Part shown: one piece after another, positions 12,613-56,972 of the stretch | Layout of the letters: each line of letters opens with the position of its first letter | Position numbering within the stretch: the first letter of the stretch is position 1 | Assembly (NCBI GenBank): GCA_963804645.1 | Contig: CAWDRG010000019.1 | Location: forward strand, 1 to 64,000 | DNA length: 64,000 bases | Direction of reading: 5' to 3' | DNA from: an uncultured Bacillota bacterium | GTDB lineage: Bacteria > Sysuimicrobiota > Sysuimicrobiia > Sysuimicrobiales > Segetimicrobiaceae | Made by a program: the position numbers and the translations under genes | The notes under the pieces: model-generated | Seen by the model: only the letters and a program-made list of their open reading frames with translations | Database searches by the model: none | What the model was told of the DNA's origin: nothing

Positions 12613-12657
12613 TTTGGGAGCAGAAGGTCGTCGGTTCAAGTCCGACCGCCCCGACCA
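12613..12657 (+). repeat. 3' half of tRNA-Pro(TGG), att-site relic, copy 2
   Basis: Direct repeat of 582-626; no tRNA 5' half upstream. Confidence 0.85.
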
Positions 12658-12700
12658 TATCGATCAGGTCCAACCCGGAGACATAGGTGACAGTTCGTAC

Positions 12701-13867
12701 CTAAGACATGGGTAACACTTTCGGGCCGAACGGATTTTCGAGCGGTTCGAGCACGCGTGTCTCCAGATCAAAGTACCCCAAGTCATAATCCATAAAGCTG
12801 ACCAGCCAGATGTCATCATACACTTCTTTGATGCCGACGGCTTGTCCCGCGAAGACTTGGCTGAAGTTGATCTTATGGTTGCCCAGACAGATGCGACCGC
12901 ACTGCGTGACCACGACGGTCTTGTCGTGCAGCGGATAATCGATCTCCGGCAAGCCCGTGTAGGGACGTGGGGAAGGGCGGTAGACTTGCGCCGGACACTG
13001 CATGTCCAGGGCTTCGTGCGGGCGTTCGTTGTTGAAGATGTCGATAAATTTGTCAAACCGGGCCTGCTGCTGCAGGAAATTGGCCGCGGCGGGCTTGGTG
13101 GCTTCTTTCTTCAACGTGAGGTGCATCCGTTCATGACGGCCGTTCTGCTGGGGATGGCCGGGCTGGATGCGTTCGATGCCAATGCCGAGGCGTACCCACC
13201 AGACCGCCAGTCGGCTCAAGTTGAAGAGGGCGTGCGCGGACGCGAACGGGACGCCGTTGTCGCTGCGGATGTTGGCCGGGAGGCCGCGCTCCTTAGACAA
13301 CCGCTCAAACCCTGTAAAGGCATAGGTTTCTTTGGTGGAGGAGAGCGCGTCACAGGCCAGCAGAAACCGGCTGGCGTGGTCGGTGACCGTGAGCGGATAG
13401 CAGTAGCGGTGATTGCCCAGCAGGAACTCGCCTTTGTAATCGGTGCACCATACTTCGTTCGGACGGTGCCCAAGCGACAAGGGGGTGCCCTGCGCCCGAC
13501 GCCGCAGGCGCCCACGACGCTCCACCAGGCCGTGGCGATCCAGCACCGCATGGATCGTGCTCTTCGCGGGGATGGGAATCCCTGCGAACCGGCGCGTCAA
13601 GCGCTCGCGGATCTTCCGCGCCCCCCAGCTGGCGTGTTCGCGCTTCACAGTGAGGATGTAGTTCTCGACTTGAACGGGCAGTTGGTTGGCGTAGCGATAC
13701 GGACGCCGGCTGCGGTCCGTGAGCCCGTGGATGCCGCATTCCTGATACCGATCGAAGAGCTTGTAACCGGTCTTGCGGGAAATCCCAAACTCTCGGCACA
13801 GTTCCGCCATCGACTCACCGGCGAGTCGCCGCGCGACAAACTGCATGCGTTCGTCCATCACCGAACA
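12701..13867 (-). pseudogene. IS481-family DDE transposase, first codons (15244-15266) separated by IS256
   Basis: HTH, WCTDYKG, IRSDNG, PQQNGRHER.H; intact version at 54714-55895. Confidence 0.9.
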
Positions 13868-15243
13868 GAGGTACCCTCAAAGGGTGTGTAAATGCTGAAG
13901 GCGGTGTATCCTCCTGAGAGAGAGACCAACAACCAGGCCTTGTCAGAGGCCCAGGGAGGAAACACACCGCCATGGACAAGCAGAACACGGATCACGACAC
14001 GTCGTCAAGTCCCAGCTGGGACAAGTTGGAGGCCTGGGCTCGGATGCAGATCCAGACGTGGTTCCAGGATCTCCTCGAGGCGGAAGTCACGGAGCTGCTC
14101 GGGCGCCGCAAGGCGCAACGCCGACCGGCCGTGGACGCGCCGGCGGGCTATCGCAACGGCTATGGCAAGCCGCGGCGGCTGACGCTGAGCGCCGGGACGA
14201 TTACGGTGCGACGTCCGCGCACCCGCGGGCTGGAGGACCGGTTCGAGAGTCGGCTCTTGCCGTTGTTCGTCCGCCGGACGCGCGAAGTGAACGCCCTGCT
14301 GCCGGAGTTGTATCTGCATGGCCTGGCCCAGGGGGATTTGGCGCTGGCGCTGCGCGGGCTCCTGGGCGAGGCCGCGCCGCTGTCCGCGAGCACGGTGGCC
14401 CGGCTCACAGAGAAGTGGCAGGGGGAGTACGAGGCGTGGAACCAGCGCCGGGTGGACGAGCTGGAAGTGGTCTACCTCTGGGTCGATGGGGTCTATGTCA
14501 AGGCCGGTCTGGAGAAGGACAAGGCCGCGCTCCTGGTCGCGCTGGCGGGCTTGAGTGATGGCCGCAAGGTGCTCCTCGCCGTCGCGAGCGGGCCCCGGGA
14601 ATCCACGGAGGCCTGGGGCACGTTCCTGCGGGCGCTGCGCGCGCGGGGGCTCTGCGCGCCGAAGCTGGTGATCGGGGATGGCCATCTGGGGATCTGGGGC
14701 GCGCTGCGCGACGTGTATCCGGAGGCGGCGGAGCAGCGGTGTTGGAATCACCGCATCGTCAACGTGCTGGACACGCTCCCCAAGCGCGCGCAACCGCAGG
14801 CCAAGCCCCTCCTGACCGCGATCGCGTACGCGGAGACGCGGGAGGAGGCCGAGCGGCGGAAGGCCGCCTTCCAGCGCTGGGCCACCGGCCGGGGGCACGA
14901 GGACGCCGTGCGCGTACTGGATCGCGACTGGGACCGGTTCGTCACCTTCTACCAGTTCCCCCGGGAGCACTGGTCACATCTGCGGACGTCGAACCCGGTG
15001 GAGTCACCCTTTGCGGCCTTGCGGTTGCGCACGGATGCCGCGAAACGCTTCAAGAAGGTTGCCAACGCGCGCGCGATCATCTGGAAGCTGTTGCTGGTCG
15101 CGGAGCGCCGCTCCGACGGCTCACCGCCCCGGAGCGTGCCACTGAGGTCTACCTAGGCGTGAAGTTCGTGAATGGCGTGAAAGTCACGACCAACGGTCAG
15201 GAGGTCGCCGCCTGAAGATTTACACACCTATTGACGGAACCTC
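13868..15243 (+). mobile_element. IS256-family element
   Basis: 26-bp imperfect IRs gaggtaccctcaaagggtgtgtaaat; 8-bp TSD accgaaca at 13860-13867 and 15244-15251. Confidence 0.92.
13972..15215 (+). CDS. IS256 (Mutator) transposase, apparent frameshift near C-terminus
   Basis: YRNGY, YLWVDGVY, IGDG..G.W.A, QRCWNH, LRTSNPVES; ORF stops at 15156 while the natural tail continues in another frame to 15215. Confidence 0.88.
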
Positions 15244-15330
15244 ACCGAACACTCCCTCCAGGGCATCCGCGTCCCCCCCTTTAGGGGAGGAAGTGTTACC
15301 CATGTGTCCGGTACAACCTGTTACCTATGT

Positions 15331-16141
15331 GTGCAGCCCGTAAAGCCATACACTCAGTCGGTGAGAGTCCGACCCGCGGAGTCGCCCAACTTGCCGCGGT
15401 AGTGTTGTCCGGCGTCTCGAAGGAGGTGACTCGCGAGACGGAAGCCCGGACGTACAAGTCTCGGCGGCCCGGCAGAGATATAAAGGCCGCGGTCGGTGGC
15501 CCAGGAGACGAGCGATGGATGGGGCCGCAACATGAAGTGAACACTGCAGCGTCGTTATTCAGGCCCACTCAGAGCTCCGGTAACGGAGTGCTCAGCGCCA
15601 CAGTGGGAATGAGGGTGCCAAGTTTCTACATAGGGGACGAAGGCCAGTGTGGTTGCGGAAGAAGCTGGGCGTGTGCACGCAACCAGCCCTCCGGCGTAGG
15701 GGTGGCGGCAACATCCAAAGGGTGGATGGTCAAAGCGGGGAAGGGCTCTCACCCGTGAGGCCAGTGATATAACCGACTTCACTCGGGAAGTTCACTGGTG
15801 GGGGAGAGTCTGGCGCATGAGGCCGTAGGAGCGATGATCGCTCCGATAACAAGGAGCGGGAGCAAAGGGCCTCTGGGAGCAGGCCAGCGTTGGAGAAGGA
15901 GAGGGTGCGGGTGCTGATAACGCGCTCGGGCTACCGCCAAGATCCGGACCGACGCTGTAGGCTGCAGCAAACCAATCGCTCCCCAGGTACAGGCTGGGAA
16001 GGATCGGGAACGCTGCAACTGAGCGCGTGCTCTTCCAGCCGGATTGGGGAAAACCCGCTATCCGGTTGATAGGGGGCGGGGTGGAACCGTGGTCAGGCTC
16101 CTTAACGGTAACCTGACCGGCGCGCCACCCTGCTACCCGAC
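15331..16141 (+). ncRNA. ORF-less group II intron, copy 1
   Basis: Domain V cagccggat...gaaa...atccggttg (16036-16068) with AGC triad; domain VI with bulged A16135 seven nt from the 3' AC; EBS1 acatag (15628-15633) complementary to the 5' exon end ctatgt; excision restores the IS IR. Confidence 0.88.
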
Positions 16142-16216
16142 CTCAGGCTGGAGGTCAAGGGGTTACGATGATCGCCGATTCTGCGAGCCGCATTTTCGTG
16201 AACACGCCTAGACCTG

Positions 16217-54594: not shown

Positions 54595-54670
54595 GCGCCC
54601 GTAGCTCAGAGGAGAGAGCGGCTGCCTTCTAAGCAGCGGGTCGGGGGTTCGAATCCCTCCGGGCGCGCCA
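54595..54670 (+). tRNA. tRNA-Arg(TCT)
   Basis: 76-nt cloverleaf: acceptor gcgcccg/cgggcgc, anticodon arm gctgc-ctTCTaa-gcagc, GTTCGAA T-loop, encoded CCA. Confidence 0.97.
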
Positions 54671-54713
54671 AGCTCAGATGGTCCAACCCGGAGACATAGG
54701 TGACAGTTCGTAC

Positions 54714-55895
54714 CTAAGACATGGGTAACACTTTCGGGCCGAACGGATTTTCGAGCGGTTCGAGCACGCGTGTCTCCAGATCAAAGTACCCCAAGTCATC
54801 ATCCATAAAGCTGACCAGCCAGATGTCATCATACACTTCTTTGATGCCGACGGCTTGTCCCACGAAGACTTGGCTGAAGTTGATCTTATGGTTGCCTAGA
54901 CAGATGCGACCGCACTGCGTGACCACGACGGTCTTGTCGTGGAGCGGATAATCGATCTCCGGCAAGCCCGTGTAGGGACGTGGGGAAGGGCGGTAGACTT
55001 GCGCCGGACACTGCATGTCCAGGGCTTCGTGCGGGCGTTCGTTGTTGAAGGTGTCGATAAATTTGTCAAACCGGGCCTGCTGCTGCAGGAGATTGGCCGC
55101 GGCGGGCTTGGTGGCTTCTTTCTTCAACGTGAGGTGCATCCGTTCATGACGGCCGTTCTGCTGGGGATGGCCGGGCTGGATGCGTTCGATGCCAATGCCG
55201 AGGCGTACCCACCAGACCGCCAGTCGGCTCAAGTTGAAGAGGGCGTGCGCGGACGCGAACGGGACGCCGTTGTCGCTGCGGATGTTGGCCGGGAGGCCGC
55301 GCTCCTTAGACAACCGCTCAAACCCTGTAAAGGCATAGGGTTCTTTGGTGGAGGAGAGCGCGTCACAGGCCAGCAGAAACCGGCTGGCGTGGTCGGTGAC
55401 CGTGAGCGGATAGCAGTAGCGGTGATTGCCCAGCAGGAACTCGCCTTTGTAATCGGTGCACCATACTTCGTTCGGACGGTGCCCAAGCGACAAGGGGGTG
55501 CCCTGCGCCCGACGCCGCAGGCGCCCACGACGCTCCACCAGGCCGTGGCGATCCAGCACCGCATGGATCGTGCTCTTCGCGGGGATGGGAATCCCTGCGA
55601 ACCGGCGCGTCAAGCGCTCGCGGATCTTCCGCGCCCCCCAGCTGGCGTGTTCGCGCTTCACAGTGAGGATGTAGTTCTCGACTTGAACGGGCAGTTGGTT
55701 GGCGTAGCGATACGGACGCCGGCTGCGGTCCGTGAGCCCGTGGATGCCGCATTCCTGATACCGATCGAAGAGCTTGTAACCGGTCTTGCGGGAAATCCCA
55801 AACTCTCGGCACAGTTCCGCCATCGACTCACCGGCGAGTCGCCGCGCGACAAACTGCATGCGTTCGTCCATCACCGAACACTCCCTCCAGGGCAT
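54714..55895 (-). CDS. IS481-family DDE transposase
   Basis: MPWRECSVMDER, HTH, rve core (WCTDYKG, SDNG, NGRHER). Confidence 0.93.
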   Translation of the reverse strand: MPWRECSVMDERMQFVARRLAGESMAELCREFGISRKTGYKLFDRYQECGIHGLTDRSRRPYRYANQLPVQVENYILTVKREHASWGARKIRERLTRRFAGIPIPAKSTIHAVLDRHGLVERRGRLRRRAQGTPLSLGHRPNEVWCTDYKGEFLLGNHRYCYPLTVTDHASRFLLACDALSSTKEPYAFTGFERLSKERGLPANIRSDNGVPFASAHALFNLSRLAVWWVRLGIGIERIQPGHPQQNGRHERMHLTLKKEATKPAAANLLQQQARFDKFIDTFNNERPHEALDMQCPAQVYRPSPRPYTGLPEIDYPLHDKTVVVTQCGRICLGNHKINFSQVFVGQAVGIKEVYDDIWLVSFMDDDLGYFDLETRVLEPLENPFGPKVLPMS

Positions 55896-55959
55896 CCGCG
55901 TCCCCCCCTTTAGGGGAGGAAGTGTTACCCATGTGTCCGGTACAACCTGTTACCTATGT

Positions 55960-56770
55960 GTGCAGCCCGTAAAGCCATACACTCAGTCGGTGAGAGTCCG
56001 ACCCGCGGAGTCGCCCAACTTGCCGCGGTAGTGTTGTCCGGCGTCTCGAAGGAGGTGACTCGCGAGACGGAAGCCCGGACGTACAAGTCTCGGCGGCCCG
56101 GCAGAGATATAAAGGCCGCGGTCGGTGGCCCAGGAGACGAGCGATGGATGGGGCCGCAACATGAAGTGAACACTGCAGCGTCGTTATTCAGGCCCACTCA
56201 GAGCTCCGGGAACGGAGTGCTCAGCGCCACAGTGGGAATGAGGGTGCCAAGTTTCTACATAGGGGACGAAGGCCAGTGTGGTTGCGGAAGAAGCTGGGCG
56301 TGTGCACGCAACCAGCCCTCCGGCGTAGGGGTGGCGGCAACATCCAAAGGGTGGATGGTCAAAGCGGGGAAGGGCTCTCACCCGTGAGGCCAGTGATATA
56401 ACCGACTTCACTCGGGAAGTTCACTGGTGGGGGAGAGTCTGGCGCATGAGGCCGTAGGAGCGATGATCGCTCCGATAACAAGGAGCGGGAGCAAAGGGCC
56501 TCTGGGAGCAGGCCAGCGTTGGAGAAGGAGAGGGTGCGGGTGCTGATAACGCGCTCGGGCTACCGCCAAGATCCGGACCGACGCTGTAGGCTGCAGCAAA
56601 CCAATCGCTCCCCAGGTACAGGCTGGGAAGGATCGGGAACGCTGCAACTGAGCGCGTGCTCTTCCAGCCGGATTGGGGAAAACCCGCTATCCGGATGATA
56701 GGGGGCGGGGTGGAACCGTGGTCAGGCTCCTTAACGGTAACCTGACCGGCGCGCCACCCTGCTACCCGAC
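55960..56770 (+). ncRNA. ORF-less group II intron, copy 2
   Basis: Same sequence and same insertion point as 15331-16141 (offset 40629); differences seen at 56210 and 56695. Confidence 0.88.
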
Positions 56771-56972
56771 CTCAGGTTGGAGGGATATAAACAAGGCGTA
56801 CCGCGCGGTCAGCACCCTTCGGAGGGCGCAAAAAAGCAGCGGGCGACGCGGCCTTTGGCTGATCGCATGCAGTTCGCCCAAGTGCATGTCGTTCTCGTGT
56901 GGTTCGCTAACGTCGGTCTGCGTGGTCGGTGCCGGCACCATACTGAACGCCTCTGCCAGTTTGCCCGCATTG

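Follow-up and report, generated by a model that had tools for sequence, protein, structure and literature searches.

The DNA analyzed here (the window, 64,000 nucleotides) corresponds to C19:1-64000 in a 5.3-Mb, 22-contig draft genome of an uncultured Bacillota bacterium, for which contamination is estimated at 4.2%. The window carries two copies of a composite made of an insertion sequence (IS) of the IS481 family and of an 811-nt insert, identified as a group II intron free of open reading frames (ORF-less) and antisense to the transposase. An old lineage of ORF-less group II introns very probably uses the transposase-proximal inverted repeat (IR) of this one IS as its homing site.

Copy 2 (54680-56783) consists of a 1293-bp IS plus the 811-nt insert. 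The IS begins 9 nt past the CCA of a tRNA-Arg(TCT) gene (54595..54670, + strand; ARAGORN, Rfam tRNA score 69.6 bits), and is flanked by the 3-bp target duplication GAT (54677..54679, partner at 56784-56786). Its body extends on the - strand up to the intron site (54680..55959), and encodes a 393-aa transposase (55895..54714, - strand). This is the sole uninterrupted one in the genome: among the four IS copies having a transposase gene, as detected by tblastn, the others are cut by an IS, or feature an internal deletion or a frameshift. Because the transposase has rve, rve_3 and LZ_Tnp_IS481 domains (Pfam; 1.3e-13, 1.3e-15 and 3.6e-07, respectively) and an N-terminal helix-turn-helix (HTH_32), the host element is assigned to the IS481 family, with its DDE transposase, helix-turn-helix, leucine zipper, terminal IRs and target duplication. 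The terminal IRs measure 53 nt and are 77% complementary. The transposase-distal, tRNA-proximal IR is found at 54680..54746, the inner part of the transposase-proximal IR at 55907..55959. The latter is followed by the intron (55960..56770, + strand), and this by the outer 13 nt of the IS (56771..56783, in the form CTCAGGTTGGAGG).

Copy 1 is the same composite, further disrupted by an IS256-family element. It starts 9 nt past the CCA of a Pro-like tRNA 3' fragment (12613..12657, + strand), and includes the left part of the IS (12667..13867, - strand; 7 mismatches to 54680-55880), the IS256-family IS (13868..15241, + strand, with a Mutator-type transposase at 13972-15156 and ~10 nt duplicated at the junctions), the right part of the host IS with the inner proximal IR, delimited by sequence comparison (15242..15330, - strand), the intron (15331..16141, + strand, recognized by RF02003 and alignment) and the outer 13-nt tip (16142..16154, CTCAGGCTGGAGG), adjoining the target duplication TCA. 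The 913 nt at 15242-16154 are the same as those at 55871-56783 except at 15581/56210, 16066/56695 and 16148/56777. Overall the two copies differ at 10 positions, and beyond the repeat limits identity of the flanks, measured per 50 nt, drops to 18-40%.

According to the first-pass annotation of this DNA, the intron sits at the identical nucleotide in both IS copies, and it was indeed found between CCTATGT and CTCAGG in each (55960-56770 and 15331-16141). The annotation also held that a gap of 811 bp, occupied by the intron, lies between the inner repeats and the outermost 13 bp of the IR. Target duplications and intron-less relatives agree with this: duplications of 3 bp lie outside the whole composite, IS plus intron, in 3/3 full copies (GAT in copy 2, TCA in copy 1, ACG in C11b, located on another contig), as outside the 13-nt tip in intron-less copies of the related genomes G004 and G015. 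Since the duplications flank the composite, and intron-less relatives read through CCTATGT|CTCAGGYCGSTCA, the outer 13 nt correspond to the true IS tip. The third feature annotated, an empty CCTATGT|C site on the other strand of the tRNA-proximal IRs, is present at 54694-54700 (minus strand, with the junction between 54694 and 54693) and at 12681-12687.

Boundaries and predicted fold of the intron

The Rfam model RF02003 (group II domains D1-D4) matches the insert in both window copies (58.2 bits, cut-off 49, E 3.4e-10). It matches also two paralogues, on contig C4 of the same genome and in the related genome G006, and resident ORF-bearing introns. Exon-binding site 1 (EBS1) maps at intron nt 298-304 (ACAUAGG, window 56257..56263, + strand), and pairs 7/7 with the last seven exon bases, the intron-binding site 1 (IBS1; CCUAUGU, CCTATGT at 55953-55959). 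The two paralogues are ORF-less and reside at unrelated sites, and in each of them both partners are altered: UUAGAGU faces ACUCUAA in the C4 paralogue (C4:158167-158962, ~75% alike), GCAGAAA faces UUUCUGC in the G006 paralogue (~73-75% alike). Intron-less copies of the IS had been suggested as something to look for. Scanning 14 loci, seven intron-less proximal ends were found in six related genomes, with a precise, uninterrupted site CCTGT(T/A)ACCTATGT|CTCAGGYCGSTCA; in 2/7 of them CCTATCT replaces CCTATGT. The boundaries of the intron are fixed by these empty sites, by EBS1/IBS1 pairing and by the target duplications outside the 13-nt tip. As EBS2 we propose CAGG, at about intron nt 229-232, where the consensus fold leaves a variable stretch unpaired; the candidate IBS2 would be CCUG at positions -14 to -11 (CCTG, 55946-55949). 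A brute-force search for EBS2 complementarity across the three lineages was uninformative, as chance matches were far too many.

The consensus fold of the two window copies and the C4 and G006 paralogues includes 238 pairs, 48 of which show compensatory changes across the three intron lineages. A domain V hairpin (56666..56696, + strand; AGC triad, 2-nt GC bulge, GAAAA loop) is predicted in both the single-sequence and the consensus folds, and features one compensatory pair. The triad reads AGC in the intron, but AAC in both paralogues. An extended domain VI is predicted at 56701..56767 (+ strand), with a bulged A at 56764, six nucleotides before the intron 3' end, of which it is the seventh nucleotide; the intron terminates in AC. 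Both agree with the usual form of group II introns, in which the bulged A precedes the 3' splice site by 7-8 nt and the last two nucleotides are AY.

No remnant of an intron-encoded protein (IEP) was detected by blastx of the intron against the five IEP types resident in the genome (best E 0.68), and the long frames inside the intron (143 aa on the + strand; 90, 75 and 79 aa on the - strand) have no IEP match. ORF loss is old, because an ORF is lacking in every one of these lineages, although they are just 73-75% alike. At C4:142244-142483, 16 kb from the complete C4 paralogue, there is also a fragment of 240 nt with 83% identity to intron nt 72-318.

Occupancy of the IS ends

BLAST analysis of the genome identified five intron copies, 99.5-100% identical: the two on C19, C11:11634-12444, C11:128542-129352 and C15:243070-243880. 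The same search retrieved the 75% paralogue and the 240-nt fragment on C4. All five introns are preceded by GGTACAAYCTGTT(TT)ACCTATGT, and followed by CTCAGG. A fuzzy motif scan of the genome recovered 11 sites, five of the proximal type, all occupied, five of the distal type, all empty, and one unrelated, on C9. Distal-type sites read TAGGTACGAACTGTCACCTATGT|CTCCGGG, and 0/5 are occupied despite containing CCTATGT|C; the distal IR differs from the proximal one at -9, -14, -16 and +4. The exact empty junction CCTATGTCTCAGG has 0 occurrences in the genome. Every usable proximal end in the genome is thus filled, and the site saturated.

The hosts of the five introns are not equally preserved. 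The C15 copy retains ~32 nt of IR upstream of the intron, with a TT indel. In C11a the IS, 91% identical, is itself split by a 4.3-kb insertion (C11:12496-16808), which divides its proximal IR. This insertion carries a 716-aa frame, serine-recombinase-like at the N-terminus by eye, and a frame ending RLERLGYKVTVEAA, which we take to be typical of IS110-type transposases. Two forms of the right tip were distinguished: type B (CTCAGGYTGGAGG), seen solely in the three ~99.5% intron-bearing copies of this genome (56771-56783, 16142-16154 and C11:128529-128541), and type A (CTCAGGYCGSTCA), seen in the other two copies, in all relatives and in metagenome contigs. Type B is closer to the left tip than type A is.

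The five introns vary at just four positions (nt 10, 160, 251 and 736). The G at nt 251 (56210) is private to copy 2; T is found in the other four copies (15581 in copy 1), in G006 and in four public sequencing runs. The residue lies in a putative domain I hairpin (56203..56218, + strand, from the consensus fold), in a tetraloop closed by CUCCG/CGGAG, GGAA in copy 2 and GUAA in the others. The annotation had rightly recognized that the variant keeps a GNRA loop, and had taken this as consistent with selection on RNA structure. Such selection is supported by the 48 compensatory pairs over three lineages; a single GNRA change gives no support to it. The variant at nt 736 (56695 A, 16066 T) turns the partner of the G in the domain V triad from U to A, in agreement with the earlier claim and with the predicted fold. 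The A (a G.A pair) is common to copy 2, residing in a 99.5% IS, and to C11a, residing in a 91% IS; 3/5 copies have G.U. T is found at this position in X1 and X8, the two of the four public runs with contigs reaching it, and in L060 and L064, two metagenome contigs spanning the whole intron. Both nt 251 G and nt 736 A are derived alleles. As nt 736 A occurs at two insertion sites, either at least one copying event involved a G.A-bearing intron, or the mutation took place independently in the two copies.

The IS was detected in 15 of 40 related genomes, the intron just as the 73% paralogue located elsewhere in G006, a 53-nt tail in G010 and a 25-nt chance-level match in G039. For this reason the IS is older and more widespread than its colonization by the intron. 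The intron junction pattern had 0 matches in the collection of genome contigs. The G010 tail (L011:1503-1555, contig C46) is made by the last 53 nt of the intron alone, 94% identical, directly followed by a frame which is IS256-type transposase-like by eye.

Five metagenome contigs feature the same intron junction, and all carry the same IR motif upstream. In two the IS is 98.6-99.1% identical, in one it is divergent and has the same TT variant, and one has ~24 nt of IR. At L063:1403-1614 a tRNA-Arg(TCG) is followed by 9 nt, by GGTCCAACC fused to TGTTACCTATGT, and then by the intron: the 1.26-kb IS body is missing, and the intron begins 30 nt past the tRNA. Contigs of the peat/soil runs include intron-filled ends as well as related IS ends running directly into CTCAGGCCGCTCA; one of these runs, X1, may derive from the sample that yielded the genome. 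A contig joining 55959 to 56771 is absent from the four public runs, so that these revealed neither ligated exons nor, for this IS lineage, an exact empty site; parts left uncovered there carry no meaning.

Homing, cargo and other routes of spread

The first-pass annotation had left two ways open: the IS moves with a split end, carrying the intron as cargo, or the intron enters the IR transcribed in the tRNA direction, by means of a reverse transcriptase (RT) acting in trans. As a check, a comparison of transposase and intron phylogenies over all copies had been suggested. Divergence of IS and intron is discordant for C11a: the IS of C11a and that of copy 2 differ at 112/1280 positions, their introns at 1/811 (Fisher p = 1e-23). 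Since a near-identical intron is found in a 91% IS, in remnants and in variant IRs, the intron has probably spread by repeated retrohoming, and repeated insertion into pre-existing, diverged targets is required by the copy data. Homing into the IR in the tRNA direction is supported by the same 91% IS and remnants, by EBS1/IBS1 co-variation and by the empty sites.

An RT acting in trans is in keeping with the content of the genome, in which 11 loci encoding the maturase (GIIM) domain were found, none inside the intron; the helper would be one of them. They fall into five IEP types, 35-48% alike. In a relaxed blastn of the intron against the 6-kb regions around the 11 loci, matches were weak, the IS-borne intron showing 59-67% identity. 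The most similar ribozyme belongs to an intron present in three copies (nhmmer E 2e-12, model positions 3-542), which encodes a 440-aa IEP with RVT_1 and GIIM domains and no endonuclease domain.

Introns of this last type have been found nested. At two loci (C15:385159-388148 and about 193-196 kb on C5; L005 and L007) the 440-aa IEP intron resides in a twintron, inside the maturase-coding part of the 383-aa IEP gene (406-aa open frame) of another intron. The third copy shares ~59 nt of the same upstream flank.

The sense strand coincides with the G-rich strand in 6/6 ORF-less copies, in 11/11 IEP loci and in 41/51 tRNA genes; GC skew at the intron loci is about +0.03 over plus or minus 50-100 kb. 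The 6/6 and 11/11 orientations would be those expected for RNA entering the lagging-strand template, with the nascent lagging strand priming cDNA synthesis. A lagging-strand-template bias is described for RmInt1, RmInt2 and Sr.md.I1 and, more generally, for class D introns without an endonuclease, among them RmInt2 at the inverted repeats of an IS (PMC4615759). The opposite strand may offer a reason for the emptiness of the distal IR, the differences at -9, -14, -16 and +4 another.

A plausible route can be drawn from these features. Intron RNA would be made from the strand antisense to the transposase, probably by read-through from the tRNA gene in tRNA-adjacent copies. Splicing and packaging would be assisted in trans by the RT/maturase of a resident endonuclease-less intron, for which the 440-aa IEP intron is the best candidate. 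The RNA would reverse-splice into CCTG..ACCTATGT|C, recognized through 7 bp with EBS1, ~4 bp with a short EBS2 and contacts made by the protein, and on the lagging-strand template of a replication fork a DNA copy would be made. IS copies would have been invaded independently of one another, until no usable end was left empty in the genome. Helper protein, transcription route and replication-fork priming are the parts of this scheme that we infer.

Cargo would mean that the intron entered once, and that the IS, at least in the ~99.5% trio, subsequently moved with it to new tRNA-adjacent sites. Taken as a general account this is rather unlikely and also unnecessary, yet it stays viable for those three copies. 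All three share the derived tip CTCAGGYTGGAGG, absent elsewhere in the genome and more left-tip-like than CTCAGGYCGSTCA, and have clean 3-bp target duplications outside it; no intron-less type B copy was seen in the genome or in the contigs of the four public runs; and in the window pair IS and intron diverge to a statistically similar extent (7/1280 and 2/811, p = 0.5). A single entry does not account for the introns of the 91% IS, of the C15 remnant and of the variant metagenome IRs. Within the trio, moreover, signals conflict: five IS sites join C19b with C11b, intron nt 160 and two IS sites join C19a with C19b, so that a single shared history without recombination is excluded. Cargo would also require that a DDE transposase joins a tip lying 811 bp away from its binding repeats, and the transposase is intact in just one of the four IS copies having the gene. 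By severing the outer 13 bp the intron probably disables that IS end, and the immobilization of the IS envisaged earlier is plausible. The mosaic patterns require some recombination, and intron nt 160 and IS position 1181 are polymorphic also in environmental contigs; both fit a spread of the intron by homologous recombination or gene conversion via the flanking IS, without an RNA intermediate. We regard this route as very improbable because homologous flanks are short, 51 nt (94%) and ~8 nt in C11a, ~32 nt with a 2-nt indel and ~9 nt in C15, and the 6/6 strand bias and EBS1/IBS1 co-variation at unrelated sites are expected of retrohoming instead. An origin of the two window copies from faulty assembly, or from the duplication of a larger segment, had been named as what would refute both options. 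A 22-contig draft with 4.2% estimated contamination invites the suspicion, the probability of which is nevertheless negligible: outside 12667-16154 and 54680-56783 the flanks are not the same, copy 1 contains the additional IS256-family insertion, the copies differ at 10 positions, three more copies reside on other long contigs with unique flanks, and the same junction is found in independent metagenome contigs.

Several observations weigh against repeated retrohoming of a group II intron as set out above. The domain V/VI model RF00029 has no match at gathering score in the window. The 5' consensus of group II introns is GUGYG; the five copies and the C4 paralogue start with GUGCA, a 4/5 match, the G006 paralogue with UUGCA. 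The candidate EBS2 measures just ~4 bp and is weakly identified. The helper IEP is a presumed one, and the closest resident ribozyme is just ~60-65% alike. GC skew is a proxy for replication direction, read on a 22-contig draft, and the strand bias is confounded with the sequence differences of the distal IR, every distal site being on the other strand. The presence of the intron in contigs from RNA libraries is no proof of transcription, as such libraries may hold DNA. Finally, the window pair taken alone reveals no difference between IS and intron divergence.

tRNA flanks and related systems

The host IS seems to prefer the DNA just 3' of tRNA genes as its target. In 22/25 ends the transposase-distal tip lies 9 nt (12 ends) or 10 nt (10 ends) past the CCA at the 3' end of a tRNA or of a tRNA-like sequence, in 11 genomes and always in the same orientation; the count leaves out five more left-end matches, located at contig edges or very short. 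Next to the 25 ends are 16 whole tRNAs with nine anticodons (ARAGORN), six pieces which are tRNA-end-like by eye, and in three cases neither. Adjacent tRNAs include Arg (4 anticodons), Ala, Ile, Val, Phe and Lys, and target duplications measure 3 bp. These flanks lie at 54671-54693 and 12658-12680 in the window, at loci L040-L059 and at C11:131905. Given the fixed orientation, run-on transcription of the tRNA would cross the IS antisense, and read the intron in sense. A promoter/terminator scan of the + strand between tRNA and intron detected no terminator-like site, a weak negative. Narrow phrase searches of the literature found no description of a tRNA-targeting IS481 member, and the IS481EU paper has 0 mentions of tRNA. 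This preference may be a more original lead than intron homing.

The Pro-like tRNA end at 12613-12657 has a counterpart at 582-626: both measure 45 nt, are 98% alike and lie 12 kb apart, and no whole tRNA was called at either by tRNA calling in the window. The pair looks like the footprint of an integrated island.

RmInt1 is located inside the transposase gene of ISRm2011-2; the intron described here is located in a non-coding terminal repeat, antisense to the transposase, and its splicing therefore cannot matter for transposase expression. The use of an IS as homing site is common to RmInt1/ISRm2011-2 and to introns of Enterobacteriales, namely E.c.I1, E.c.I3, E.c.I4, E.c.I9 and c-Ha.de.I1 (PMC3522654; PMC4615759). 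The former paper also documents site saturation in some genomes, in which intron-free IS copies are absent (PMC3522654). The closest known parallel is RmInt2 of Sinorhizobium meliloti GR4, the homing sites of which are the ISRm17 inverted repeats (PMC4615759). Natural targets in the terminal IRs of a single IS, an endonuclease-less system, a lagging-strand-template bias and near-identical, recently spread copies are features of both, and a 4-bp EBS2/IBS2 pairing is sufficient for RmInt2. RmInt2, however, encodes its own IEP, whereas the ORF-less intron would need to be driven in trans, and both IRs count as RmInt2 targets, whereas here 5/5 proximal and 0/5 distal sites are occupied, 13 nt inside the tip.

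In Thermosynechococcus elongatus, TeI3 introns without an ORF are mobilized by driver IEPs of TeI4 introns, and twintrons are described as well (PMC2882425). The intron shares with them the lack of an ORF, a presumed mobilization in trans and the presence of twintrons in the same genome. In contrast, TeI3 introns are there said to keep ORF remnants and to have close ORF-bearing relatives, and reside at diverse sites; here no remnant was found, the nearest ORF-bearing ribozyme is distant, the ORF-less state is common to ~75%-alike lineages, and the target is one IS end.

Homing of introns into IS inverted repeats and the driving of ORF-less introns in trans are thus already published principles. 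Particular to this genome is the combination of an old ORF-less lineage, the use of one of two IRs, an insertion point 13 nt away from the IS end, and the saturation of all sites. An association in three layers, intron, IS and tRNA, with the type B tip as an adaptation letting the split IS transpose with the intron as cargo, can also be imagined, and we hold it to be distinctly improbable. Because of the orientation of the IS, the lagging-strand template would hold the intron target, which would also lie behind a strong tRNA promoter. If this were true, an ORF-less intron would gain expression and priming from the target choice of its host IS, and L063, devoid of the IS body and with an intron that starts 30 nt past tRNA-Arg, would be the end state.

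The G.U to G.A change in domain V, a derived allele found at two separate sites, provides a natural experiment on its compatibility with mobility. IS divergence of 9% set against intron divergence of 0.1% offers a dating contrast, and an IS end split by 811 bp is a simple system to ask whether transposition stops. The intron would represent a non-autonomous retroelement depending on two mobile elements, another intron for its RT, and the IS as its landing site.

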